This document shows positions 3,798 to 62,464 of a stretch of 64,000 nucleotides of DNA, one piece after another. The translations under genes were made by a program, and so were the position numbers. Source of the DNA: Squalus acanthias (lineage: Eukaryota); contig JASTWF010000328.1 of the NCBI GenBank assembly GCA_030390025.1, positions 1 to 64,000 on the forward strand. Direction: 5' to 3'. Numbering within the stretch: the first letter of the stretch is position 1; the number at the start of each line of letters is the position of its first letter. The notes beneath the pieces are model-generated. The model saw only the letters and a program-made list of their open reading frames with translations. It was not told where the DNA came from and ran no database searches.

Positions 3798-5548
3798 TGA
3801 TGACCTGTCTGCAGTGAAGCGCCTGTTTGAGTTTCTAACTGAGGCGAACTTCTCTTTCCCAGGAGGAGAGACGAGAGAAACTGGGGCACTTCTCATTAGA
3901 ACAAAGCAGGGTGAGAGGAGATGTGAGCGAGGTGTTTAAACTTGATCAACGACACCGACCAAAATATCAGAGACACTCCCTGTCCTTCAGGACCTGTGTC
4001 CAGGGGAGAAGCTGATGGGTTTATCAGATCATCTTTGGGTTAAATGTTGTGCTCGTGGAGCTGAGCCCCTAGTGTCAGCATCAAACACTCTCCAGTCGGG
4101 TACAGCACGGGTTAGATACAGAGTAAACCCATCAGCCGCTCCCCGACACAGATACCGAGGGACAGGGAGTGTCCGGACAATGACATTTCTCATTCAATAA
4201 GGTATAAATTGATCCTGTACCTCTCCCCATTAATCCTGGGCTCCACACGGGGCGAATCCTGCTCCTGTTTCCCTTCCTGTAACAGCACTGAGCTAAACCC
4301 AGCCCATAATGAGCAGGGCTCAGGGAGGTTGGTTGCTAGGTGCTGCAGTGATGTCATAAAGCAGGGCCATTCAGCCCAGCTGGTCGTCTCCTTGTCCCTT
4401 TAAAGGTGGAGAGCCGGGACACCCTGTCTCCAAACACATCCCACCTGTTCATACTGAGAATCCCCGGGGAAGGCCCAAGGCCCAGAGTGTGGAACACAAC
4501 CAAGGGGGAAAGAGGAGGAGAGAAGGGGAGGTAAATCAAGGAGGCGGGACTGAGGGACACCAAGCTTCAGTTTTAGAGCCTGTAGACTTCAGGAGGAGAA
4601 GAGTGAGTTCAGTAGTTTTAGGATCCAGGGAGAGAACAAGGAGCAGATGGGGAGACTGGTGTGGATTCCAGCACAGTGAGGATGTAGGGGGAGGGAGATT
4701 GTGTCGGGCCGTGTATTAGGGGTGTAGGAGGGACAAGAGAGGAAAGGTCAGAGGAGCAATTACTGCAGCAGTGCCCATAAATAGTGAGAGAGAGAGAAGG
4801 TGGGGGTTCGAGTGGACCAGGGACAGTCTGTTAAACTCGCTGTTTGCTGTGACCAGTTTTCTTTCGGTTAAAAATGTCCTCCTGTAGCCCAGTGACACAA
4901 ACAGCCCATTAAACTCCACCAATGGCCTTTGGTCTGGTGAGGTCTCCCTTTGTGAAACATCGGCTGTTGTTAAAGCTTTTCATTCTGACACGCTCACACT
5001 GAGAAATGAGCTGCAGAACTGCCGACACCGTCAGCTTTAAGGAGACGTTTCCCTTTGGAGATCGGATTGCCCATTGAGTTTGATTAAACTGATGTTAAAG
5101 TAACAAGGCTGCTTTGCCCCGTGACAATAACAGATTATCGGAATATTTCCCATAGGTTAAAATCCAATATGACAGGGACTCACTGCCCTGGATGGTTGAA
5201 GTGGACCCTGTGATATATAATAGAATTTTCTGTCCTGTCAGACTTGGACATCTTGTAGATCCATCTTATAGAAAGTTGTGGGAAATCAGTTCTCAGATGG
5301 ATTCCACTCAGTTTGTAACAAGTCCTCAATCAGCTCATTTTATTGTCGAGATATCAAGGACTCGACACACTGCGTGTGTGGGAAACAAAGCTCATTTATT
5401 TGACATTGATACAGATTAAACTCCAGCCCAGTTATAGGGGTTACTAACATCAGCTGAAACAAACCCCAATTGTCAGAATAAACATGGTTCAGTCCTGGAT
5501 GTGATTAACAGCAGCAATAACAGCAGAATCCAACCCCTACAGTCACTT

Positions 5549-6661
5549 GTGAACTCACTGGTGTGTCCGCAGGTTGGACGACTGAGTGAATCCCTTCCCA
5601 CACTCGGGGCAGGTGAACGGCCTCTCCCCAGTGTGAATTCGCTGGTGTGTCAGCAGATCCTTTGTGCTTTTAAAGCTCTTCTCACACTCAGAACATTTAA
5701 AAGGTCTCTTATTAGTGTGAACAAGTTGGTGTGTCCGGAAGTTGGATGACTGAGTGAATCTCATCCCACACACAGAGCAGGTGAACGGCCTCTCCCCTGT
5801 GTGAACTCGCTGATGTGTCAACAGGTTGGATGAACGAGTGACTCTCTTCCCACATACGGAGCAAGTGAACGACCTCTCCCCGGGACCGGTGAGCTCGCTG
5901 GTGTGTCAGCAGGTTGGATGAATGAGTGAATCCCTTCCCACATACGGAGCAAGTGAACGACCTCTCCCTGGTGTGAACTCGCTGGTGTTTCAGTAGGTTG
6001 GATGAGTGGGCAAATGTCTTTGCACAGTGAGAGCACCTGAACGGTGTCTCGTCACTGTGAACTCGCTGGTGTGTCAGCAAGTGGTTGGATTCAGAAAATC
6101 CCTTCCCACACAATGAGCAGCTGAATGGCCTCTCCCCAGTGTGAATTTGCTGGTGTTTCAGCAGGTTTGATGATTCTTTGAAAGTCTTCACGCAGTGAGA
6201 GCAACTGAACGGCCTCTCCCCGGTGTGACTGCGTCGATGAGTTTCCAGCTGGGACGGGTAATTGAATCCCTTCCCACAGTCCCCACATTTCCACGGTTTC
6301 TCCGTGGTGCGGGTGTCCTTGTGTCTCTCCAGCTTGGACGATCAGTTGAAGCCTCGTCCACACACAGAACACGTGTATGGTTTCTTCCTGCAGTGAATGA
6401 TGCGACTTTTTTCAGGCTGTGTAACTGGTTAAAGCTCTTTCCACAGTCAGTGCACTGGAACACTCTCACTCGGGTGTGTGTGTCTCAGTGCTTTTCCAGT
6501 CAAACTGATGTCTGAAATCTTTTACCACAGATAAACATTTCTCCTTCCACATTCAAAGGCCGATGATATTCAGGTCCTGATGAATGGAGTGACTCTGTCA
6601 GATCTTGACGTGATGTTTGGTTTGAGTTTGCGGTGTGTAAATGCTGCCCTTCTCACAGCCT
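5549..6661 (-). pseudogene. C2H2 zinc-finger locus A, disrupted (about 9 fingers after the KPWKC start region)
   Basis: HTGERPF-linked fingers split across ORFs 5712-6191 and 5555-5821 (frameshift ~5890). TGA in the last finger. ACG at the family start site. Family acceptor ctccttttacag and family 3' UTR present. Confidence 0.88.
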
Positions 6662-6726
6662 GTAAAAGGAGTTTGCAAAAGTCATCATTGCAAAGCAAGG
6701 ATAGAAAATCGCAACAGACAATTCTA

Positions 6727-6947
6727 GGTGCTGACACTGGTTGGGTTCAGTTCTACACTCACTGGTTCCTCTCCCTCTCCTCCCCTAAAGGTGCTGACTC
6801 TGGCTGGGTTCAGTTCTACACTCACTGGTTCCACTCCCTCTCCTCCCCTGAAGGTGCTGACTCTGGCTGGGTTCAGTTCTACACTCACTGGTTCCCCTCC
6901 CCAGAAGGTGCTGACTCTGGCTGGGTTCAGTTCTACACTCACTGGTT
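6727..6947. repeat. 63-bp ZNF-associated minisatellite, about 4 copies
   Basis: Unit ctgaaggtgctgactctggctgggttcagttctacactcactggttcccctccctctcctccc. Confidence 0.92.
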
Positions 6948-6948
6948 C

Positions 6949-7530
6949 ATAAGAACATAAGAAATAGGAGCAGGAGTGGGCCTCATCTCAGTCTGACCCC
7001 TTATTCTGAGACTGTGATCCCTGGTTCTGGACTCCCCAGCCAGGGGAAACATCCTCCCTGCATCTACCCTGTCAAGCCCTGTAAGAATTTTGTATGTTTC
7101 AATGAGATCACCTTTCATTCTTCTAAACTCCAGAGAATATAGGCCCATTCTACTCAATTTCTCCTCATAGGACAAACCCCCCATCCCAGGAACCAGTCTG
7201 GTGAACCTTCGTTGCACTCCCTCTCTGGCAAGTATATCCTTCCTTAGGTAAGGAGGCCAAAACTGTACACAATACTCCAGGTGTGGTCTCACCAGGGCCC
7301 TATATAATAGCAGTAAGACGTCTTTACTCTAATACTCAAATCCTCTTGTAATAAAGGCCAACATACCATTTGCTTTCCTAATTGCTTGCTGTACCTGCAT
7401 GTTAACTTTCAGTGATTCGTGTACAAGGACACCCAGGTCCCTCTGAACACCAACATTTCCCAATCTCTCACCATTTAAAAAACTTGGACATATTACATAC
7501 TCAAATCCTCTTGTAATAAAGGCCCACCTT
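6949..7530 (-). mobile_element. CR1 LINE 3' fragment in the putative intron of ZNF A
   Basis: ORF RPHLEYCVQFWPPYLRKD...; tail at 6949; internal deletion of the 3' UTR. Confidence 0.9.
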
Positions 7531-7744
7531 TCGTGAAGTGCTCCGGGCACTTTATTAAACACACACACAGCAGAAGCACATTAATCCGATGGGAGATCAC
7601 TGACACACGAGCAGGCAGCGGTGTGGAGCCTCCTGAGAGTCCGGCCCCTTTACAACCAGTATTTGCAGGAGCTGGGACACAGAAAAAAGTCTAATTAAAA
7701 TTACGGATATATTTGTTCACACAAACCAACCCCCAAAATACTGA

Positions 7745-8012
7745 GTCATTTCTCCTCCATTTACAGACGCTCCCTGACCAGTCACCATTTCTCCTCCATT
7801 TACAGACGCTCCCTGACCAGTCACCATTTCTCCTCTATTTACAGACGCTCCCTGACCAGTCACCAGTTCTCCTCCATTTACAGACGCTCCCTGACCAGTC
7901 ACCATTTCTCCTCCATTGACAGATGCTCCCTGACCAGTCACCATTACTCTTTCATTTGCAGACGCCCCCTGACCAGTCACCATTTCTCCTCCATTTACAG
8001 ACGCTCCCTGAC
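7745..8012. repeat. 39-bp minisatellite, about 7 copies
   Basis: Unit gtcaccatttctcctccatttacagacgctccctgacca. A single copy sits at the paralogous position ~47600. Confidence 0.92.
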
Positions 8013-8110
8013 TCACTTCCTGTCTGTCCCGGAGTTTGGCGCTTTGTTGAGATTCAGGCCAGAGCGAAACGGGAACCCGCGGGTGGAGGCGGATAATGTT
8101 CACTGATCTC

Positions 8111-8511
8111 ATAATGGGGCCTGGGGCCGCACTCGGGGTGTGTGCAGCCCGCGTCCCCCCGGGGTTTATTAACCCGCTCCCTGAGCTCTCTCACCTGATG
8201 TGTCAGCGGCTGCTGCCAAGGTCCGCGCATGCTCAGCTCACCTTCTGTTGTAACAGGTTTAAAGGTCAAGCCCCGCCCCTCTCACACTCCGATTGGTTGG
8301 AGGACCCGCCGCCCCCTCGGTCCTCCAGGCCCGCCCCGCTCTTCCTATTGGTCCGAGCTCCCGTCAATCACCCGGGCAGTGTGAGCTGAGCATGCGCGGA
8401 CCTTGGCAGCAGCCGCTGACACATCAGGTGAGAGAGCTCAGGGAGCGGGTTAATAAACCCCGGGGGGACGCGGGCTGCACACACCCCGAGTGCGGCCCCA
8501 GGCCCCATTAT
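8111..8511. promoter_or_regulatory. Putative bidirectional promoter for ZNF A(-)/B(+): 131-bp perfect inverted repeats around a 139-bp core
   Basis: 8111-8241 is the exact reverse complement of 8381-8511. Core has inverted CCAAT boxes (gattgg, tattgg), GC boxes and gtcaatca. Each arm has an NRF1-like gcatgcgc, an ATG and a cag|gtgaga donor. Confidence 0.8.
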
Positions 8512-8781
8512 TAAAACACTCAACATTATCCGCTTCACAAACACCCGGGGTGGGCCTCAGGCCCCGAACAACAGCCTCCGGGCCGGGCGTTTGCCCCGAG
8601 CGGGGCGGCAGCTGCGGGGCTTTCTCCCGGTGACAGGCCCGGGTTAACGGCCGCCATCTTGACAGGCTCAGGGGGCAGCAGGGCGCATGCGCGGCCCCCT
8701 TGGCCAGGAACCAGGAGGAGAGAATCTTGGCAATTTCTATCCTGGACTCACAGTCATGGCTTTTGGAAACTCCTTTTACAG

Positions 8782-9890
8782 GCTGTGAGAAGGGCAGCAT
8801 TTACACACCGCAAACTCACACCAAACATCACATCAAGATCTGACAGAGTCACTCCATTCATCAGGACCCGAATATCATCGGCCTCTGAATGTGGAAGGAG
8901 AAATGTTTGTCTGTTCTGTCTGTGGGAAAAGATTTCAAACATCAGTGTGACTGGAAAAGCACCGAGACACACACACCCGAGTGAGAGTGTTCCAGTGCAC
9001 TGACTGTGGAAAGAGCCTTAACCAGTTACACAGCCTGAAAAAACATCGCACCGTTCACAGCGGGGAGAAACCGTACACGTGTTCTGTGTGTGGACGAGGC
9101 TTCAACTGATCGTCCAACCTGGAGAGTCACAATGAATCCCGCACCATGGAAAAACCGTGGAAATGTGGGGACTATGGGAAGGGATTCAGTTCCCCATCGA
9201 AGCTGGAAACTCATCGACACAGTCACATTTACCTGCTCCGTGTGTGGGAAGGGATTCACTCATTCATCCAACCTTCTGAGACACCAGCGAGTTCACACTG
9301 GGGAGAGGCCATTCACCTACTCCGTGTGTGGGAAGAGATTCACTCAGAGATCCAGCTTGCTGATCCACCAGCGAGTTCACACTGGGGAGAGGCCGTTCAC
9401 CTGCTTCATGTGTGGGAAGGGATTCACTCGTTCATCTGAGCTTGTGAAACACCAGCACATTCACACACGAGAGAGGCTGTTCACCTGCTCCGTGTGTAAG
9501 AAAGGATTCACTTGTTCATTCGAGCTTTTGAGACATCAACGCATTCACACTGGAGAGAGGCCATTCACCTGCTCCACGTGTGGGAAGGGATTTAATCGAC
9601 CATCCAAACTTCTGACACACCAGTGCATTCACACTGGAGAGAGGCCGTTCACCTGTTCCGTGTGTGGGAAGGGATTCACTAATTCATCTGATGTTCTGAC
9701 AGACCAGCGAGTTCACACTGGGGAGAGACCGTTCACCTGCTCCATGTGTGGGAAGGGATTCACTTGTTCATCCAGCCTGCTGACACACCAGCGAGTTCAC
9801 ACTGGGGAGAGGGCGTTCACCTGCTCCGTGTGTGGGAAGGGATTCACTCAATCATCCCACCTGCTGAGACACCAGCGAGTTCACAAGTGA
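8782..9890 (+). pseudogene. C2H2 zinc-finger locus B, frameshifted (about 9 fingers)
   Basis: Acceptor ttttacag ends at 8781. TGAs at 8786, 8948 and 9107. Kozak ATG at 9146 (MEKPWKC). A 14-nt linker deletion at ~9226 shifts the frame. Ends HQRVHK*. AATAAA at ~10035. Confidence 0.85.
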
Positions 9891-15046: not shown

Positions 15047-15625
15047 GTTGCGGGTGTCCTTGTGTCTCTCCAGGTTGGACGATCAGTTGAAGCCTCGTCC
15101 ACACACAGAACACGTGTACGGTTTCTCCCCACTGTGAACGGTGCGATGTTTTTTCAGACTGTGTAACTGGTTAAAGCTCTTTCCACAGTCAGTGCACTGG
15201 AACACTCTCACTCGGGTGTGTGTGTCTCGGTGCTTTTCCAGTCACACTGATGTTTGAAATCGTTTCCCACAGACAGAAGAGACAAACATTTCCCCTTCTA
15301 TATTCAAAGGCCGATGATATTCAGGTCCTGATGAATTGAGTGACTCTGAGATTTTAACGTGATGTTTGGTTTGAATTTCCCGTCTGTAAATCCTCCTCTT
15401 CTCACACCCTGTAAAAGGAGTTTACAAAAGTCATCACTGTAATTACAGGATAGAAATTCAGAACAGACAATTCTAGTTTCTATGCAACATTCTTTCCTCT
15501 CTTGTTCCCCCAAAGCTGTAAATCCCCGTCCCACACACTCTCCCTCCTCCCTGTGCTGAAATCATACCATCGCATATCGCCCAACAGTTTGTCCCCCACT
15601 CCCAGTTTTCTCCCTCGACGCTGAT

Positions 15626-16388
15626 GGGTTCAGTTCTACACTCACTGGTTCCCCTCCCTCTCCTCCCCTGAAGGTGCTGACTCTGGCTGGGTTCAGTTCT
15701 ACACTCACTGGTTCCCCTCTCTCTCCTCCCCTGAAGGTGCTGACTCTGGCTGGGTTCAGTTCTACACTCACTGGTTCCCCTCTCTCTCCTCCCCTGAAGG
15801 TGCTGACTCTGGCTGGGTTCAGTTCTACACTCACTGGTTCCCCTCTCTCTCCTCCCCTGAAGGTGCTGACTCTGGCTGGGTTCAGTTCTACACTCACTGG
15901 TTCCCCTCCCTCTCTCCTCCCCTGAAGGTGCTGACTCTGGCTGGGTTCAGTTCTACACTCACTGGTTCCCCTGAAGGTGCTGACTCTGGCTGGGTGCAGT
16001 TCTACACTCACTGGTTCCCCTCCCTCTCTCCTCCTCTGAAGGTGCTGACTCTGGCTGGGTTCAGTTCTACACTCACTGGTTCCTCTCTCTCTCCTCCCCT
16101 GAAGGTGCTGACTCTGGCTGGGTTCAGTTCCACACTCACTGGTTCCCCTCCCTCTCCTCCCCTGAAGGTGCTGACTCTGGCTGGGTTCAGTTCTAGACTC
16201 ACTGGTTCCCCTCCCTCTCCTCCCCTGAAGGTACTGACTCTGGCTGGGTTCAGTTCTACACTCACTGGTTCCCCTCCCTCTCCTCCCCTGAAGGTGCTGA
16301 CTCTGGCTGGGTTCAGTTCTACACTCACTGGTTCCCCTCTCTCTCCTCCTCTGAAGGTGCTGACTCTGGCTGGGTTCTGTTCTACACT
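15626..16388. repeat. 63-bp ZNF-associated minisatellite, about 12 copies
   Basis: Same unit as 6727-6947; period 63 (15731 to 15794). Confidence 0.95.
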
Positions 16389-22517: not shown

Positions 22518-22537
22518 GTTGAGATGTTGAAACACCC

Positions 22538-23240
22538 GCTGTGTGCAGAGTGAGAATAAAATCAATGAGTCGATTTTCTCCCCTGGTCACTGGGACCCTG
22601 AAGCCCCGCCCACTCATTGTTCCTTTACAAAGATGGCCGCACATACGCTCCGCTGCACTATGAATCAAAATGGCGGCGCACTAAACCTTCCAGCTTTCCT
22701 TTGCAAACATGGCGGCAATTAACTGGGGCCTGTTACCGGGGAAAAAGCCCCGGATCTGCAAACGCGGAACCTGCAGGTTCTTATTCGGGGCTTGCGGCCT
22801 ACACCAGGTGCTTATGAAGCCCACCTGCCAGACCCATTACTCTCCTGCGACCATCGCCTCTCACCTGCTGCAAAACTGTGTCTGCGACCTCTGCCCACTT
22901 CCAGCTCTCACCCAAGTCTGATCGAAGTCACACTGCGCATGCTCCTAATACCGTCCCGCACCGCGCCTGCGCACTGGTCTCCTGCAGTGTGAATAGGGAC
23001 TGGAGAAACTCGCTGCCCCGCGGATCAGACAATCAGCCGGCGCTAGTCCCGCCCCTCGGGCTCCCCGATTGGTTGGAGGACCCGCCGCCGGCTCGCTCCT
23101 CCAGCCCCGCCCCGCTCGCTCTCTATTGGTCGGAAGCTCCCGTCAATCAGGCCGTGGGCCCGGGTCACGTGTCCCCGATGAGATCACGTGCTCCGTCCAA
23201 CTGACTCCGCTCGGTCCGGGGCCTCGCGGACTCTGAGGTT
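22538..23240. promoter_or_regulatory. CpG-rich putative bidirectional promoter for ZNF C(-)/D(+)
   Basis: YY1-like aagatggcc/aaaatggcgg/aacatggcgg, NRF1-like tgcgcatgc, two inverted CCAAT boxes, GC boxes, cggaag, gtcaatca, E-box gtcacgtg. 22538-22650 is the reverse complement of gene J 5' region 53970-54088. Confidence 0.7.
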
Positions 23241-23715
23241 TTTCTATTTCTCTTTATTCTCTCCCGATCCACCCCTCCCCCCCCACCCCGCGCGATTCTC
23301 CACCCAATCAGAGCGGAGAAAACTCACTCTGCGTCACCGATCGCGAGTCTGTAACCGACACCAAGGCCTTTCCCCGGAATGCCCCGCGCCGACTCCGTCC
23401 GGCAGGATCCGACCGCGCAGGCGCAGCTCCGAGTGGGGGAGGGGGGTTGGTCCCCCCTGGGTATTGCAGCCGCCATTACTGCTGATCCTTTCAACCAACC
23501 TGTGCAGCAGCTGGAGCCTGAAAATCAGCTTCACTGCCCCTAGGTTCGGAAAGGGGAAAATTAAACAACATTTTGCCTCTGATCCTTTTCTGAACTCATT
23601 TTACAGGGTTATAGAAGTGGAGCAGTTACAGGCGGGAAGCTCAGACCAAACATCACGTCAAGATCTGACAGAGTCGCTCGATTCATCAGGACCTGAATAT
23701 CATCGGCCTTTGCAC

Positions 23716-34550: not shown

Positions 34551-35507
34551 ATGGGAGAGCAGGTGATGTGTTACTGCTGCAATATGTGGGAGCTGGAGGA
34601 CACCATTGATGTTCACGATGATCACATTTGCAGTAAGTGTTGGCTGCTCGAGGAACTCCGGCTCCGTGTTGATGAGCTGGAGTCCGAGCTTCAAACACTG
34701 CGACACATCAGGGAGGGGGAGAGTTACCTGGACTCTGTGTTCCAGGAGGTAGTCACACCAATTAGATTAACTAATTCAGATGTAGCCCATGATCAGGGAC
34801 AGGAGGGTGTGACTACGAGTGAGGCAGGTACGGGGATCCAGGAGGTAGTGTTGGAGGAGCCGCAGCCCTTGCTCTTGTCCAACAGGTTCGAGGCTCTTAC
34901 TCCCTGTGAGGATGGGAGCAGGGACTGCAGGGAGGATGAGCAACCTGGCCACAGCACTGTGGTACGGGGAGCCATTCAAATGGGGGGAGTAAAAAGAAAT
35001 GTTGTAGTGGTAGGGGATAGTATCATTAAGGGGATAGATAGGGTTCTTTGCAGCCGAGAGCGAGAGTCCCGAAGGCTATGTTGCCTGCCCGGTGCCAGGG
35101 TTAAGGACATCTCCTCTGGGCTGGAGAGAAACTTGGAGTGGGAGGGGGAAGATCCAGTTGTCGTGGTCCATGTTGGTACCAATGACATAGATAGGACAAG
35201 GAATGAGGTTCTGCTGAGGGAGTATGAGCAGCTAGGGGCCAAATTAAAAAAAAGAACCTCTAGGGTAGTAATCTCTGGATTACTACCTGAGCCACGAGCA
35301 AATTTGGCTAGGGTAAATAAAATCAGAGGGTTAAATGCGTGGCTCAAAGACTGGTGTGGGAGAAATGGGTTTTGCTACCTGGGACACTGGCACCAGTACT
35401 GGGACAGGAGAGAGCTGTTCCGTTGGGACGGACTTCACTTGGCCAGTGCTGGGACTAGAGTCCTGGCGAATCGAATAACTAGGGCTGTAGAGAGGGCTTT
35501 AAACTAA
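34551..35507 (+). CDS. CR1 ORF1p (N-terminal Cys/His motif, coiled coil, SGNH esterase)
   Basis: CxxC...HxCxxC, a leucine heptad, and VVVGDS, CLPGA, HVGTND and DGLHL esterase blocks; 318 aa. Confidence 0.92.
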   Translation: MGEQVMCYCCNMWELEDTIDVHDDHICSKCWLLEELRLRVDELESELQTLRHIREGESYLDSVFQEVVTPIRLTNSDVAHDQGQEGVTTSEAGTGIQEVVLEEPQPLLLSNRFEALTPCEDGSRDCREDEQPGHSTVVRGAIQMGGVKRNVVVVGDSIIKGIDRVLCSRERESRRLCCLPGARVKDISSGLERNLEWEGEDPVVVVHVGTNDIDRTRNEVLLREYEQLGAKLKKRTSRVVISGLLPEPRANLARVNKIRGLNAWLKDWCGRNGFCYLGHWHQYWDRRELFRWDGLHLASAGTRVLANRITRAVERALN

Positions 35508-35545
35508 TTAGTGGGGGGGAGGTTTCAAGAGAGCAAAAAATAAAA

Positions 35546-38497
35546 ATGTCAGCGGAGAAGGCAATAGAGCAAAGTAGCAGTGGGGTAATTAAAAACCAGA
35601 GCGTGTCAGGAAGGGACAGAATATATAAAGATAAAGGTAAAGTAGTAAAGGGGGTAAAAGCAGGAAAAAATTGTCACAAAACATATTTAAAAGTTCTTTA
35701 TCTGAATGCACGCAGCATTCGTAACAAAATAGACGAATTGACGGTACAAATAACTACGTATGGGTATGATCTTGTGGCCATTACAGAAACATGGCTGCAG
35801 GGTGACAACGACTGGGAATTAAATATGCCAGGGTATTTAACAATCAGGAAGGACAGACAGGAAGGAAGAGGGGGTGGGGTAGCTATGTTAATAAAGGAAG
35901 GAATCACTGTATTACAGAGAAATGATATTGGGTCAAAGGATCAGGATAATGAAACAGTTTGGGTGGAGATAAGGAATAATAAAGGGAAAAAAACACTAGT
36001 GGGAGTAGTATATAGGCCTCCTAATAGTTGCAACTCTGCTGGAAGAAGTATTAATCAGGAAATAGTTGGGGCATGTAATAAGGGAACAGCTATAATTATA
36101 GGGGATTTTAACTATCATATTAACTGGACAAATCAAATTGGGCAGGGCAGCCTTGAGGAAGAGTTTATTGAGTGTATTAGGGATGGATTTCTTGAGCAGT
36201 ATGTAACTGATCCTACAAGGGGGCAAGCAACCTTGGACCTGGTCCTGTGTAATGAGTCAGGATTAATTAATAATGTCCTAGTTAAGGATCCCCTTGGAAT
36301 GAGTGACCATAACATGGTTGAATTCCATATCCAATTAGAGGGTGAGAAGGTTGGTTCTCAGACAAGCGTACTGAGCTTGAATAAAGGAGACTATGATGGT
36401 ATGAGAGCGGAATTGATTAAAGTGGACTGGGAAAATAGATTAAAGGGTAAGACGGTACATGAGCAGTGGTGTTCATTTAAGGAGTTATTTTACAACTTTC
36501 AAAAAAAATATATTCCACTGAGGAAAAAAGGGTGTAAAAGAAATGACAGCCATCCGTGGCTAAGTAAAGAAATTAAGGATAGTATCCAACTAAAAACAAG
36601 GACATATAAGGTAGCCAAACTTAGTGGGAGGATAGAAGATTGGGAAGTCTTCAAAAGACAGCAAAAAGTAACTAAAGGATTGATTAAGAAAGGTAAGATA
36701 GATTATGAAAATAAATTAGCAAAAAATATAAAAACAGATAGCAAGAGTTTCTATAGTTATATAAAAAGAAAAAGGGTGGCTAAGGCAAACGTAGGTCCCT
36801 TAGAGGATGAGACCGGGAAATTAATGGTGGGAAACATGGAGATGGCAAAAATGCTGAACAAATATTTTGTTTCAGTCTTTACGGTAGAGGACACTAAGAA
36901 TATCCCAACACTGGACAAACAGGGGGCTCTAGGGGGGGAGGAGCTAAATACGATTAAAATCACTAAGGAATTGGTACTCAGTAAAATAATAGGACTCAAG
37001 GCGGATAAATCCCCTGGACCTGATGGCTTACATCCTAGGGTCTTGAGGGAAGTGGCAATAGGGATTGTGGATGCTTTGGTAATAATTTTCCAAAATTCCC
37101 TGGAATCAGCAAAGGTCCCGGCAGATTGGAAAACTGCTAATGTAACACCCTTATTTAAAAAGGGTAGTAGGCAGAAAGCTGGAAATTATAGACCAGTTAG
37201 TCTAACATCTGTGGTGGGTAAAATTTTGGAGTCTATTATTAAGGAGACAGTAACGGAACATTTAGATAAACATAATTTGATAGGACAAAGTCAGCATGGC
37301 TTTATGAAGGGGAAATCATGTCTGACAAATTTGCTTGAGTTCTTTGAGGACATAACGTACAGGGTGGATAAAGGGGAACCAATGGACGTAGTGTATTTAG
37401 ACTTCCAGAAGGCATTCGACAAGGTGCCACATAAAAGATTATTGCTCAAGATAAAAAATCACTGGATTGGGGGTAATATTCTGGCATGGGTGGAGGATTG
37501 GTTATCTAACAGGAAGCAGAGAGTTGGGATAAATGGTTCATTCTCGGACTGGCAACCAGTAGCCAGTGGTGTTCCGCAGGGGTCGGTGCTGGGTCCCCAA
37601 CTCTTTACAATCTATATTAACGATTTGGAGGAGGGGACCGAGTGTAACATATCAAAGTTTGCAGATGATACAAAGATGGGAGGGAAAGTAGAAAGTGAGG
37701 AGGACATAAAAAACCTACAAGGGGATATAGACAAGCTGGGTGAGTGGGCAGAGATTTGGCAGATGCAATACAATATTGGAAAATGTGAGGTTATGCACTT
37801 TGGCAGGAAAAATCAGAGAGCAAGTTATTATCTTAATGGCGAGAAACTGGAAAGTACTGCAGTACAAAGGGATCTGGGGGTCCTAGTGCAAGAAAATCAA
37901 AAAGTTAGTATACAGGTGCAGCAGGTGATCAAGAAGGCCAACGGAATGTTGGCTTTTATTGCTAGGGGGATAGATTATAAAAACAGGGAGGTATTGCTGC
38001 AGTTATATAAGGTATTGGTGAGACCGCATCTGGAATACTGCATACAGTTTTGGTGTCCATACTTAAGAAAAGACATACTTGCTCTCGAGGCAGTACAAAG
38101 AAGGTTCACTCAGTTAATCCCCGGGATGAGGGGGTGGACATATGAGGAGAGGTTGAGTAGATTGGGACTCTACTCATTGGAGTTCAGAAGAATGAGAGGC
38201 GATCTTATTGAAACATATAAGATTGTGAAGGGGCTTGATCGGGTGGATGCGGTAAGGATGTTCCCAAGGATGGGTGAAACTAGAACTAGGGGGCATAATC
38301 TTAGAATAAGGGGCTGCTCTTTCAAAACTGAGATGAGGAGAAACTTCTTCACTCAGAGGGTAGTAGGTCTGTGGAATTTGCTGCCCCAGGAAGCTGTGGA
38401 AGCTACATCATTAAATAAATTTAAAACAGAAATAGACAGTTTCCTAGAAGTAAAGGGAATTAGGGGTTACGGGGAGCGGGCAGGAAATTGGACATGA
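35546..38497 (+). CDS. CR1 ORF2p (APE endonuclease and reverse transcriptase)
   Basis: 983-aa uninterrupted ORF with [42 protein letters not shown] and FADD. Confidence 0.96.
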   Translation: MSAEKAIEQSSSGVIKNQSVSGRDRIYKDKGKVVKGVKAGKNCHKTYLKVLYLNARSIRNKIDELTVQITTYGYDLVAITETWLQGDNDWELNMPGYLTIRKDRQEGRGGGVAMLIKEGITVLQRNDIGSKDQDNETVWVEIRNNKGKKTLVGVVYRPPNSCNSAGRSINQEIVGACNKGTAIIIGDFNYHINWTNQIGQGSLEEEFIECIRDGFLEQYVTDPTRGQATLDLVLCNESGLINNVLVKDPLGMSDHNMVEFHIQLEGEKVGSQTSVLSLNKGDYDGMRAELIKVDWENRLKGKTVHEQWCSFKELFYNFQKKYIPLRKKGCKRNDSHPWLSKEIKDSIQLKTRTYKVAKLSGRIEDWEVFKRQQKVTKGLIKKGKIDYENKLAKNIKTDSKSFYSYIKRKRVAKANVGPLEDETGKLMVGNMEMAKMLNKYFVSVFTVEDTKNIPTLDKQGALGGEELNTIKITKELVLSKIIGLKADKSPGPDGLHPRVLREVAIGIVDALVIIFQNSLESAKVPADWKTANVTPLFKKGSRQKAGNYRPVSLTSVVGKILESIIKETVTEHLDKHNLIGQSQHGFMKGKSCLTNLLEFFEDITYRVDKGEPMDVVYLDFQKAFDKVPHKRLLLKIKNHWIGGNILAWVEDWLSNRKQRVGINGSFSDWQPVASGVPQGSVLGPQLFTIYINDLEEGTECNISKFADDTKMGGKVESEEDIKNLQGDIDKLGEWAEIWQMQYNIGKCEVMHFGRKNQRASYYLNGEKLESTAVQRDLGVLVQENQKVSIQVQQVIKKANGMLAFIARGIDYKNREVLLQLYKVLVRPHLEYCIQFWCPYLRKDILALEAVQRRFTQLIPGMRGWTYEERLSRLGLYSLEFRRMRGDLIETYKIVKGLDRVDAVRMFPRMGETRTRGHNLRIRGCSFKTEMRRNFFTQRVVGLWNLLPQEAVEATSLNKFKTEIDSFLEVKGIRGYGERAGNWT

Positions 38498-45068: not shown

Positions 45069-45462
45069 GTAAAAGGAGTTTACAAAAGCCATCACTGAGA
45101 GTCCAGGATAGAAATTGACAAGATTCTCTCCTCCTGGTTCCTGGCCAAGGGGGCCGCACATGCTCAGCTCACACTACCCGGGCGATTGACGGGAACTCCG
45201 GACCAATAGGAAGAGCAGGGCGGGGCTGGAGGACTGAGCGGGCGGTTGTTGGGACAACGGCTCCTGTCAATGGAGAGAAATGATCTGGGTTTATGGGGCA
45301 CAAGATCAAAATCTTGAGATGACGCCAAAAAGCGACCATGTCCAACTGTGAAGAGGACTGTAAGTGACTTCAGTGTGAATACACAGGTTAGTAAATGGGG
45401 CAATAGCAAAATACAGCAGGCGCTGGAAATCTGAAATTGAAACAGAAAATGGTGGAAACACT

Positions 45463-46903: not shown

Positions 46904-47258
46904 GGTGCAGGTGACCTTATGTATGTCCAGGTTGGACAATCCGTTGAAGCCTCGTCCACACACAACACGTATACGGTTTCTCCCCACTGTGAATGGTGCG
47001 ATGTTACTCCAGGCTGTGTAACTGGTTAAAGCTCTTTCCACAGTCAGCGCTCTGGAACACTCTCACTCGGGTGTGTGTGTGTCTCGGTGCTTTTCCAGTC
47101 ACACTGATGTTTGAAATCTTTTCCCACAGACAGAACAGACAAAAATTTCTCCTTCCACATTCAAATGCCGATGATATTCAGGTCCTGATGAATTGAGTGA
47201 CTCTGTCAGATCTTGATGTGATGTTTGGTTTGAGTTTCCCGTCTCTAAATCCTCCCCT

Positions 47259-47462
47259 TCAGTTCCACATTCACTGGTTCCCCTCCCTCTCCTCCCCTGA
47301 AGGTGCTGACTCTGGCTGGGTTCAGTTCTACACTCACTGGTTCCCCTCCCTCTCCTCCCCTGAAGGTGCTGACTCTGGCTGGGTTCAGTTCTACACTCAC
47401 TGGTTCCCCTCCCTCCCCTCCCCTGAAGGTGCTGACTCTGGCTGGGTTCAGTTCTGCACTCA
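47259..47462. repeat. 63-bp ZNF-associated minisatellite, about 3 copies
   Basis: Same unit as at 6.7 kb and 15.6 kb. Confidence 0.9.
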
Positions 47463-47717: not shown

Positions 47718-48041
47718 AATAATGGGGCCTGGGGCCGCACTCGGGGTGTGTGCAGCCCGCGTCCCCCCGGGGTTTATTAACCCGCTCTCTGAGCTCTCTC
47801 ACCTGATGTGTCAGCGGCTGCTGCCAAGGTCCGTGCATGCTCAGCTCTCACTGCCCGGGTGATTGACGGGAGCTCCGGACCAATAGGAAGAGCGGGGCGG
47901 GGCTGGAGGACCGAGCGGGCGGCGGGTCCTCCAATCAATCGGAGTGTGTGAGGGGTGGGGCTTGACCTTTAAACCTGAACAACAGAAGGTGAGCTGAGCA
48001 TGCGCGGACCTTGGCAGCAGCCGCTGACACATCAGGTGAGA
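47718..48041. promoter_or_regulatory. Second inverted-repeat bidirectional promoter cassette, ZNF G(-)/H(+)
   Basis: Same arms as 8111-8511, with the right arm truncated at ~48041. The core is in reverse orientation relative to the flanks. Confidence 0.78.
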
Positions 48042-60998: not shown

Positions 60999-61682
<684 letters not shown>

Positions 61683-61739
61683 TGTAAAAGGAGTTTCCAA
61701 AAGCCATGACTGTGAGTCCGGGATAGAAATTGCCAAGAT

Positions 61740-62200
61740 TCTCTCCTCCTGGTTCCTGGCCAAGGGGGCCGCGCATGCGCCCTGCTGCCCCCTGAGCCTG
61801 TCCAGATGGCGGCCGTTAAACCGGGCCTGTCACCGAGAGAAAGCCCAGCAGCTGCCGCCCCGCTCGGGGCAAACGCCCGGCCCGGAGGCTGTTGTTCGGG
61901 GCCTGAGGCCCACCCCGGGTGTTTGTGAAGCGGATAATGTTGAGTGTTTTAATAATGGGGCCTGGGGCCGCACTCGGGGTGTGTGCAGCCCGCGTCCCCC
62001 CGGAGTTTAATAACCCGCTCCCTGAGCTCTCTCACTGATGTGTCAGCGGCTGCTGCCAAGGTCCGCGCATGCTCAGCTCACACTGCCCGGGTGATTGACG
62101 GGAGCTCCGGACCAATAGAAGAGTGGGGCGGGGCTGGAGGACCGAGCGGGCGGCGGGTCCTCCAACTAATGGCGGTGCAGCAAGGGGGCGGGGCCTGGTG
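61740..62200 (-). promoter_or_regulatory. Putative promoter and first exon of ZNF K (one arm plus partial core)
   Basis: Reverse complement of ~8295-8720. Confidence 0.7.
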
Positions 62201-62464
62201 AGCAGCTCAGGTGCGCTGGGGCCGATTGTGACGCGCTGTCCCCAGGTGAGAGCAGCTCAGTCAGCACAGAGCTGGGGCTGGAATCTGGGAGAGGGGCCAC
62301 AGTCAGCGGGCCTGGCAAAGGGCCAGAGCGACAGCAGCTTCACTAAAGAAGATTATTTAAAGACAAATTCCTGTAGTTTTAGAGACAGCCCTGGTCACTG
62401 CAATAATTTCTTAAATGTTTAATAATTAAATCAAAAGCATCAAAAAGGAAGAGTAGCAAAAGTA

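Follow-up and report, generated by a model that had tools for sequence, protein, structure and literature searches.

A perfect 131-bp inverted repeat between head-to-head shark zinc-finger genes, probably a by-product of exchange among family leaders

Two head-to-head zinc-finger genes of the shark Squalus acanthias are separated by a perfect 131-bp inverted repeat. Its arms are not unique to the pair: each is a module that serves as 5′ leader in a large family of shark C2H2 zinc-finger genes. We consider it probable that leaders across this large, young subfamily are homogenised by homologous exchange (conversion, sometimes crossover) and that the repeat is a by-product. The repeat is real and is mostly explained by known turnover in a young gene family, while its scale and anatomy are new. 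All positions refer to the window, i.e., the whole 64,000-nucleotide stretch that was analysed (positions 1 to 64,000 of contig JASTWF010000328.1 in assembly GCA_030390025.1). In it, C2H2 finger arrays occur on either strand, interspersed with LINE fragments and minisatellites.

The left arm (8111-8241, minus strand, the leader module of gene A) and the right arm (8381-8511, plus strand, that of gene B) are reverse complements at 131 of 131 bases and enclose a 139-bp spacer, just as an earlier sequence-only reading of this DNA had described. The exact match extends neither inwards nor outwards, and the window contains no N. Beyond the 131 bp there is a 10-bp block with six mismatches, after which homology resumes, so a looser repeat of 156 bp at 96.2% identity can be drawn (8086-8241 and 8381-8536), with outer imperfect extensions at 8086-8110 (minus strand) and 8512-8536 (plus strand) that agree at 19 of 25 positions. 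Each arm contains an ATG (8392, mirror 8230) and a CAG|GT donor motif (8427/8428, mirror 8195/8194), again as first described, and would comprise a 47-nt exon part followed by 84 nt of intron. Acceptor motifs are present before 8782 in gene B, where one had been predicted, and before 6659 in gene A, where the prediction had been approximately 6661. The head-to-head arrangement is likewise confirmed, with finger arrays at 5633-6287 on the minus strand and 9234-9884 on the plus strand.

A repeat whose arms are perfectly identical could be produced by the assembly process (e.g., a fold-back or a collapsed repeat), and among the contigs listed in the sequencing runs described below, none bridges the whole arm. 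However, a second locus (47719-48041) shows both core-arm junctions again with private substitutions, and X5, an independent DNA run, covers all 30 bins of 8013-9010, so we regard an artefact as very improbable. The two sides of the repeat also run into different intron types, each of which has its own paralogues.

X5 is one of 24 runs listed by a search (18 with at least half of the words), none of which is recorded as RNA, and one of four that were compared with the window as contigs, along with X8, X10 and X16. The comparison covered 8013-9010 (998 bases), with the gene A junction outside this stretch, and X5 was read to about 55% and X16 to 88%. X8 has the same organism code as X5 and is RNA by guess, while X16 comes from another organism. 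The sequence-only reading proposed that the two genes have identical first exons, with a junction from 8427 to 8782 in gene B, and we retain these exons as predictions from splice motifs: the joint is not among the contigs listed in the four runs, a result that counts neither for nor against splicing, and exon and intron cannot be ranked by the depth of single contigs. In X8 and X10, core and arm are covered by unspliced contigs (8324-8449), which carry no start or strand information. One X10 contig ends at 8427, and a one-base deletion in another copy of the arm (unit E, below) yields a branch at the same place.

Behind the arms, the two genes have different predicted introns. The B-type intron (8428-8781, plus strand) is 98% identical over 270 bp to a copy at 61682-61951, and the A-type intron (6660-8194, minus strand) contains 39-bp and 63-bp minisatellites. 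The 63-bp minisatellite is found before exon 2 of three finger genes in the window, at 6726-6948 (3.7 copies), 15625-16388 (approximately 12 copies) and 47258-47462 (3.3 copies).

Exon 2 of gene A (5545-6659, minus strand) contains seven fingers in two frames, the first five without an ATG-started frame, and the sole ATG-started ORF with a finger has 69 aa and one finger; gene A is probably a pseudogene, judging from its sequence. Exon 2 of gene B (8782-9890, plus strand) begins with a dead finger leader containing two TGA codons, its family-type start (9146) goes out of frame after the first finger, and its ORF (9132-9890) has 252 aa and six intact C2H2 fingers. The ATG at 9132 is absent from unit E, the near twin of gene B, and in B it opens a frame of six fingers that the frameshift has cut off from the family-type start. 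Elsewhere in the window, gene C is intact (252 aa, nine fingers), and units D and E are broken. Two further details of exon 2 recur across paralogues. The dead finger leader has TGA at the same two positions in B (8945-8947 and 9107-9109) and also in A, C, D, E and F, and the linker behind the first finger has a short deletion of differing length in B (9228), D (48230) and E (61237), possibly marking a deletion hotspot.

Pfam matches on five frames were to C2H2 families, and no KRAB family was among the matches in those five frames. When the leader of a neighbouring finger gene was used as a query, the five best of 47 protein matches were horn-shark gene models, so we treat the family as one of cartilaginous fish; identity among the shark matches to this leader was 37-58%.

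The sequence-only reading also noted an ATG with a 12-residue peptide in each arm. If spliced as predicted, the frame from this ATG (the MRGPW peptide) would run for 85 aa in gene B and for 41 aa in gene A and contain no fingers. It would then be an upstream ORF in a different frame from the fingers, with 12 codons up to the predicted donor (8392-8427 on the plus strand, mirror 8195-8230 on the minus strand). Its exon-2 part (73 aa) had no homologue among proteins of 40-128 residues and matched 0 Pfam families. Because the arm ATG frame contains no fingers and exon 2 of A, B, C, E and F has stops that close its finger frame, the arms are best read as non-coding leaders.

The spacer between the arms (8242-8380) is a predicted promoter core. 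A motif scan of it gives a TATA-like hexamer (TTTAAA) at 8258, GC boxes at 8273, 8309 and 8331, and CCAAT boxes (ATTGG) at 8292 and 8347. GC content is 0.64 and the CpG observed/expected ratio 0.70 over 8013-8730 (vs 0.44 for the window), and a CpG island with CCAAT/GC-box content therefore sits between the divergent genes. The core had been described as a symmetric bidirectional promoter, and the CpG island fits with the promoter part of this claim, i.e., with a putative one, but not with its symmetry: both CCAAT boxes are on one strand of the core, and the TATA-like hexamer is at the left core end only, as is a strong donor-like AAG|GTGAGC (8/9). Related cores occur at six other places in the window, one whole (47850-47988) and five partial.

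The sequence-only reading treated the arm as a feature of A and B and overlooked its other copies. BLAST of the arm against the window gives five places, i.e., A, B, C, D and E. At 47.7-48.0 kbp, the same arm-core-arm arrangement recurs, with arms that agree at 51 of 53 positions. It consists of the arm of gene C (47719-47849, minus strand; 3/131 substitutions), with 10 B-type bases between it and an A-type intron, the second whole core (47850-47988, minus strand; six substitutions and two indels), which has the opposite orientation relative to the A-type intron, and the arm of unit D (47989-48041, plus strand), which is identical to A and B for 53 bp (0/53) and then lost to a deletion into finger exon sequence. 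Unit E (61952-62197, minus strand) has an arm at 61952-62081 (two substitutions and one deletion, 3/131) and a partial core. In unit F (45163-45245, minus strand), the core end is joined to a B-type intron and almost the whole arm is gone. The arm of F was lost between two copies of a short GCATG-containing word (45163-45183), the deletion in D (48041) removed the intron and the start of exon 2, and short shared words are present at both deletion joints.

Opposite the arm of E there is a weak, diverged mirror arm (62198-62302, plus strand) which begins at the mirror position and has a donor motif, with a local score of 47 that was equalled by 14 of 1000 shuffles in one of eight regions tested. 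Of the five other cores only E gave even this weak signal, as 205-314 of 1000 shuffles scored as high for mirror arms at cores F, G, H and I. The forward side of core H has a diverged arm (0 of 1000 shuffles as high). Core I (22532-23600) is also two-sided in appearance: a donor motif is present on its minus side, as is an intron that is related to the one in unit H, and no exon 2 was found behind it.

The zinc-finger family behind the arm is clearly large and many-copy, since 1646 contigs of X5 fall on the 998 compared bases (where summed depth is not copy number). Two exact-pattern scans of metagenome contigs gave 0 loci each.

How the arms of A and B came to be identical is best approached by comparing them with the sequence around them. 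Exon 2 of A differs from that of B at 22 of 352 aligned bases, and at this rate 0/131 is unlikely by chance (binomial 2e-4; Fisher vs 22/352, 0.001). The arms are also more alike than the two whole cores, which differ at 8/140 (Fisher 0.007), and the finger-leader sequences of A, B, C, D and E differ by 10-13% in all pairs. A more telling comparison is that of A with C, where the arm differs at 3/131 and the intron blocks directly behind it at 26/159 substitutions (Fisher 4e-5), in alignments that are approximate and contain eight gaps. A and C have a common intron type (homologous 5′ blocks and the 63-bp minisatellite), yet both have B-type arms, and the B-like tract ends at position 131 in A and at position 141 in C. 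Such a contrast with differing tract ends is the pattern that conversion tracts would be expected to leave.

One alternative is that there has been no exchange since the arms originated: a leader constrained by factor sites and donor would descend from a single recent template, and neither A nor B would have acquired a mutation in it. All six differences among the window copies are private to C or E, the arms of A and B do not differ from the five-copy consensus (so no derived base is common to A and B), and two contigs of X16 match the arm without a difference (131/131). The probability of 0/131 at the rate seen between copies is 0.048. B and E show no special conservation of the arm either (3/131, vs 5/270 in the intron), and the six differences that X16 has in 452 neighbouring bases are not significantly more than the zero in its arm (Fisher 0.35). 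However, 84 of the 131 bases are predicted intron, identity between A and C falls to approximately 84% immediately beyond the arm, the arm is almost entirely gone from F, and A, which has kept it, looks like a pseudogene. In addition, a horn-shark gene model has only a diverged match to the second half of the arm and the B-type flank (22/38 residues, E 2e-6 against six small loci). This match, together with the weak, diverged mirror arm of E, indicates that the arm is not frozen across sharks, and suggests an old origin of the head-to-head arrangement, with arms that diverge unless they are overwritten. We therefore consider inheritance without exchange unlikely.

A second alternative is that the structure is a MITE or another non-autonomous DNA transposon with 131-bp terminal inverted repeats. 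It does have the arm-spacer-arm form of such an element (401 bp, two copies in the window), but a target-site duplication is absent at either boundary tested, homology continues beyond the arm ends, single-arm copies (E and F) and core-only copies exist, and every copy is at a zinc-finger 5′ end. With no target-site duplication and with related flanks, this reading is largely refuted, and we give it almost no weight.

Recent homologous exchange, the more general part of what the sequence-only reading had proposed (gene conversion or recombination), thus remains our preferred explanation, but conversion specifically between A and B does not follow. Because the arm is a family module and both arms equal the consensus, also in X16, A-B identity alone does not single out that event. 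In X16, one contig passes through the arm end without a break at 8511, the core has a different upstream flank, and the repeat was not seen in the 88% of the run that was read, where depth is low.

We infer the following sequence of events. A young and very large shark C2H2 subfamily, with members that often lie head to head around one CCAAT/GC-box core, would have the arms as its common 5′ leader (exon part, donor and the beginning of intron 1). Homologous exchange would copy the abundant B-type leader over older leaders and stop abruptly where homology drops. At the 8.2-kbp locus, the leader of A would have been overwritten up to position 131, and at the second locus that of C up to position 141, leaving the core joined to an A-type intron by its other end. 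The nearest donor would be the facing arm, but any family copy would yield the same sequence. The perfect repeat would then be a by-product of turnover and not a selected structure.

The second locus raises a further question, because the A-type intron joins the TTTAAA end of the core at 8.2 kbp and the CCAAT end at 47.9 kbp. One possible explanation is that the core is an invertible segment, i.e., that crossover between the arms flips the 139-bp core and thereby turns its TATA-like end and strong donor-like site towards one gene or the other, that these loci have undergone such a flip one or more times, and that the orientation may be polymorphic. Near-identical inverted repeats flank a unique segment, as this would need, and the junction in C (arm plus 10 B-type bases, then A-type intron) is the one expected from a crossover in the outer homology block. 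There are also precedents in the yeast flip/flop region (PMC9731477) and in human inversions that exchange first exons (PMC3961182). However, the reciprocal junction was deleted with the intron of D, a crossover between different loci would yield the same junction, only three of four end-by-intron combinations occur among five informative units, and no listed contig bridges the arm, hence there is no phasing across the locus. The body of D differs from B by 11.6%, from A by 10.0% and from F by 8.5%, and trees were unresolved; as D is no closer to B than to A or F, the C/D locus is not a plain duplicate of A/B. With the reciprocal side deleted and D not B-like, in-place inversion and inter-locus crossover are indistinguishable, and we lean against inversion while treating it as a serious candidate. 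It is compatible with family exchange, to which it adds a crossover at the locus. If the core does flip in the population or in somatic cells, it would be the smallest kind of promoter inversion.

The sequence-only reading suggested that the repeat could fold into a stem-loop. The DNA does fold (z -27), as any perfect repeat trivially would. We rejected a DNA cruciform, which would need a 139-nt loop, as unlikely, because stable hairpins in yeast needed spacers of <9 bp (PMC8053094) and the spacer here is 139 bp. An Rfam match to MIR918 was also rejected, as it was the best of three matches, reached 53 bits against a gathering threshold of 268, and reflects a long-hairpin model matching the repeat. 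A duplex in RNA is the one form of the suggestion to have gained some indirect support. The idea would be that transcripts crossing the core contain both arms and form a 131-bp duplex, which is ADAR-edited or processed and could damp both genes.

That support comes from one contig of X8 (8420-8533, depth 4.07), which lies on the right arm and B-type flank and has seven A>G changes at 8452-8481 (plus strand). In 8450-8488, 7 of 9 A sites and none of the 30 other sites listed carry such a change (Fisher 2e-6). The 5′ neighbours of the changed sites are T, A or C, and the only site with a 5′ G is unchanged, which resembles the 5′ U/A preference, 5′ G avoidance and clustered A>G changes of ADAR substrates in young repeats (PMC9989829). 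The seven changes are absent from X5 (depth 26,407-163,473), X10, X16 and four window copies, and among the differences listed X8 has 17 A>G places, compared with 4-6 in the other runs. A partner strand would be needed, since a single arm folds no better than shuffles (z -0.95), and contigs of X8 and X10 do pass unspliced from the core (8324-8326) into the arm. On the other side, this is one contig with a depth below 5, from a run whose RNA status is guessed; it carries six further differences of undisplayed kind and may derive from any B-type copy, and the DNA run used for comparison is another sample, not the same individual. Pairing could be with an antisense transcript or with an inverted copy far away, whereas divergent transcripts from the core would each contain one arm in the same sense and could not pair with each other. 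Editing of young repeats is also common and need not be functional. We therefore treat the A>G cluster as a lead for the arm being double-stranded in RNA, not as a result, and consider a functional role of the repeat as RNA quite unlikely. If the editing lead holds, the gene leaders would themselves be a source of double-stranded RNA in the family. Two more low-depth X8 contigs (8325-8449) have 9-10 differences each, of undisplayed kind, and may hold further A>G changes.

The two preceding ideas can be combined into a vertebrate flip-flop promoter, in which the core inverts recurrently between the arms in many family members, switching which gene has the TATA-like end, and transcripts that cross the core form an ADAR-edited duplex. 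We rate this combination a long shot. If true, ordinary homologous recombination would be driving a eukaryotic equivalent of the invertible promoters of bacteria.

Lineage-specific tandem C2H2 clusters (KRAB-ZNF-like) undergo birth and death and typically contain many paralogues, frameshifts, shared scars and CpG-island promoters. The shark cluster has all four of these features, and its best protein matches are horn-shark ZNF models. Unlike KRAB-ZNF clusters, it has no KRAB match in the five frames scanned, and it has a two-exon design with a dead finger leader.

The closest parallel for the exchange itself may be SIGLEC11/SIGLEC16 of primates, head-to-head paralogues in which gene conversion keeps the upstream sequence and the first exons alike, with tract boundaries varying from event to event (PMC5701461). 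Like that pair, the shark genes are divergent paralogues with a 5′ tract that is far more alike than the rest, sharp tract ends and a probably non-functional copy involved. The SIGLEC genes are approximately 9 kbp apart, have their own promoters and have a converted region of 2-3 kbp that includes coding exons (PMC5701461), whereas the shark arms are 131 bp long, 139 bp apart, non-coding and arranged around one common core, and conversion within the species is only hypothetical. At a far smaller scale, the shark locus may also work like the Saccharomyces flip/flop region, where homogenised inverted repeats let the enclosed segment invert (PMC9731477), and like human inversions such as HsInv0241 at AQP12A/B, which exchange the first exons of paralogues (PMC3961182). 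Both likewise have continually homogenised inverted repeats and inversions that exchange gene 5′ ends, but with kbp-long repeats and with both orientations proven at one locus. The shark repeat is very short and encloses only a promoter core, and its two orientations are at paralogous loci only.

Other systems share parts of this anatomy. The silkmoth chorion HcA/HcB genes form a tandem cluster of head-to-head pairs approximately 330 nt apart, with a bidirectional promoter, conversion and pseudogene templates, but the members of a pair belong to different classes, and the available part of the source does not describe an inverted repeat within a pair (PMC4639761). ADAR substrates of young inverted repeats resemble the X8 contig in their clustering and neighbour preferences, but there the repeats are transposon pairs (PMC9989829), and here we have one contig and a repeat made of gene leaders around a promoter. 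In the open-access literature (subscription papers being outside the scope), we found neither the shark promoter module described nor any vertebrate paralogues with an invertible core between them. Most likely, the locus is a compact case of non-coding leaders evolving in concert within an expanded shark zinc-finger family, and it illustrates how promoters and first exons can be swapped between gene bodies.

The LINE fragments among the finger genes include one long open frame. At 35483-38497, 1004 aa read like an intact LINE ORF2 with endonuclease and reverse transcriptase, which we take to be of a CR1-like family, and a frame of 321 aa precedes it.
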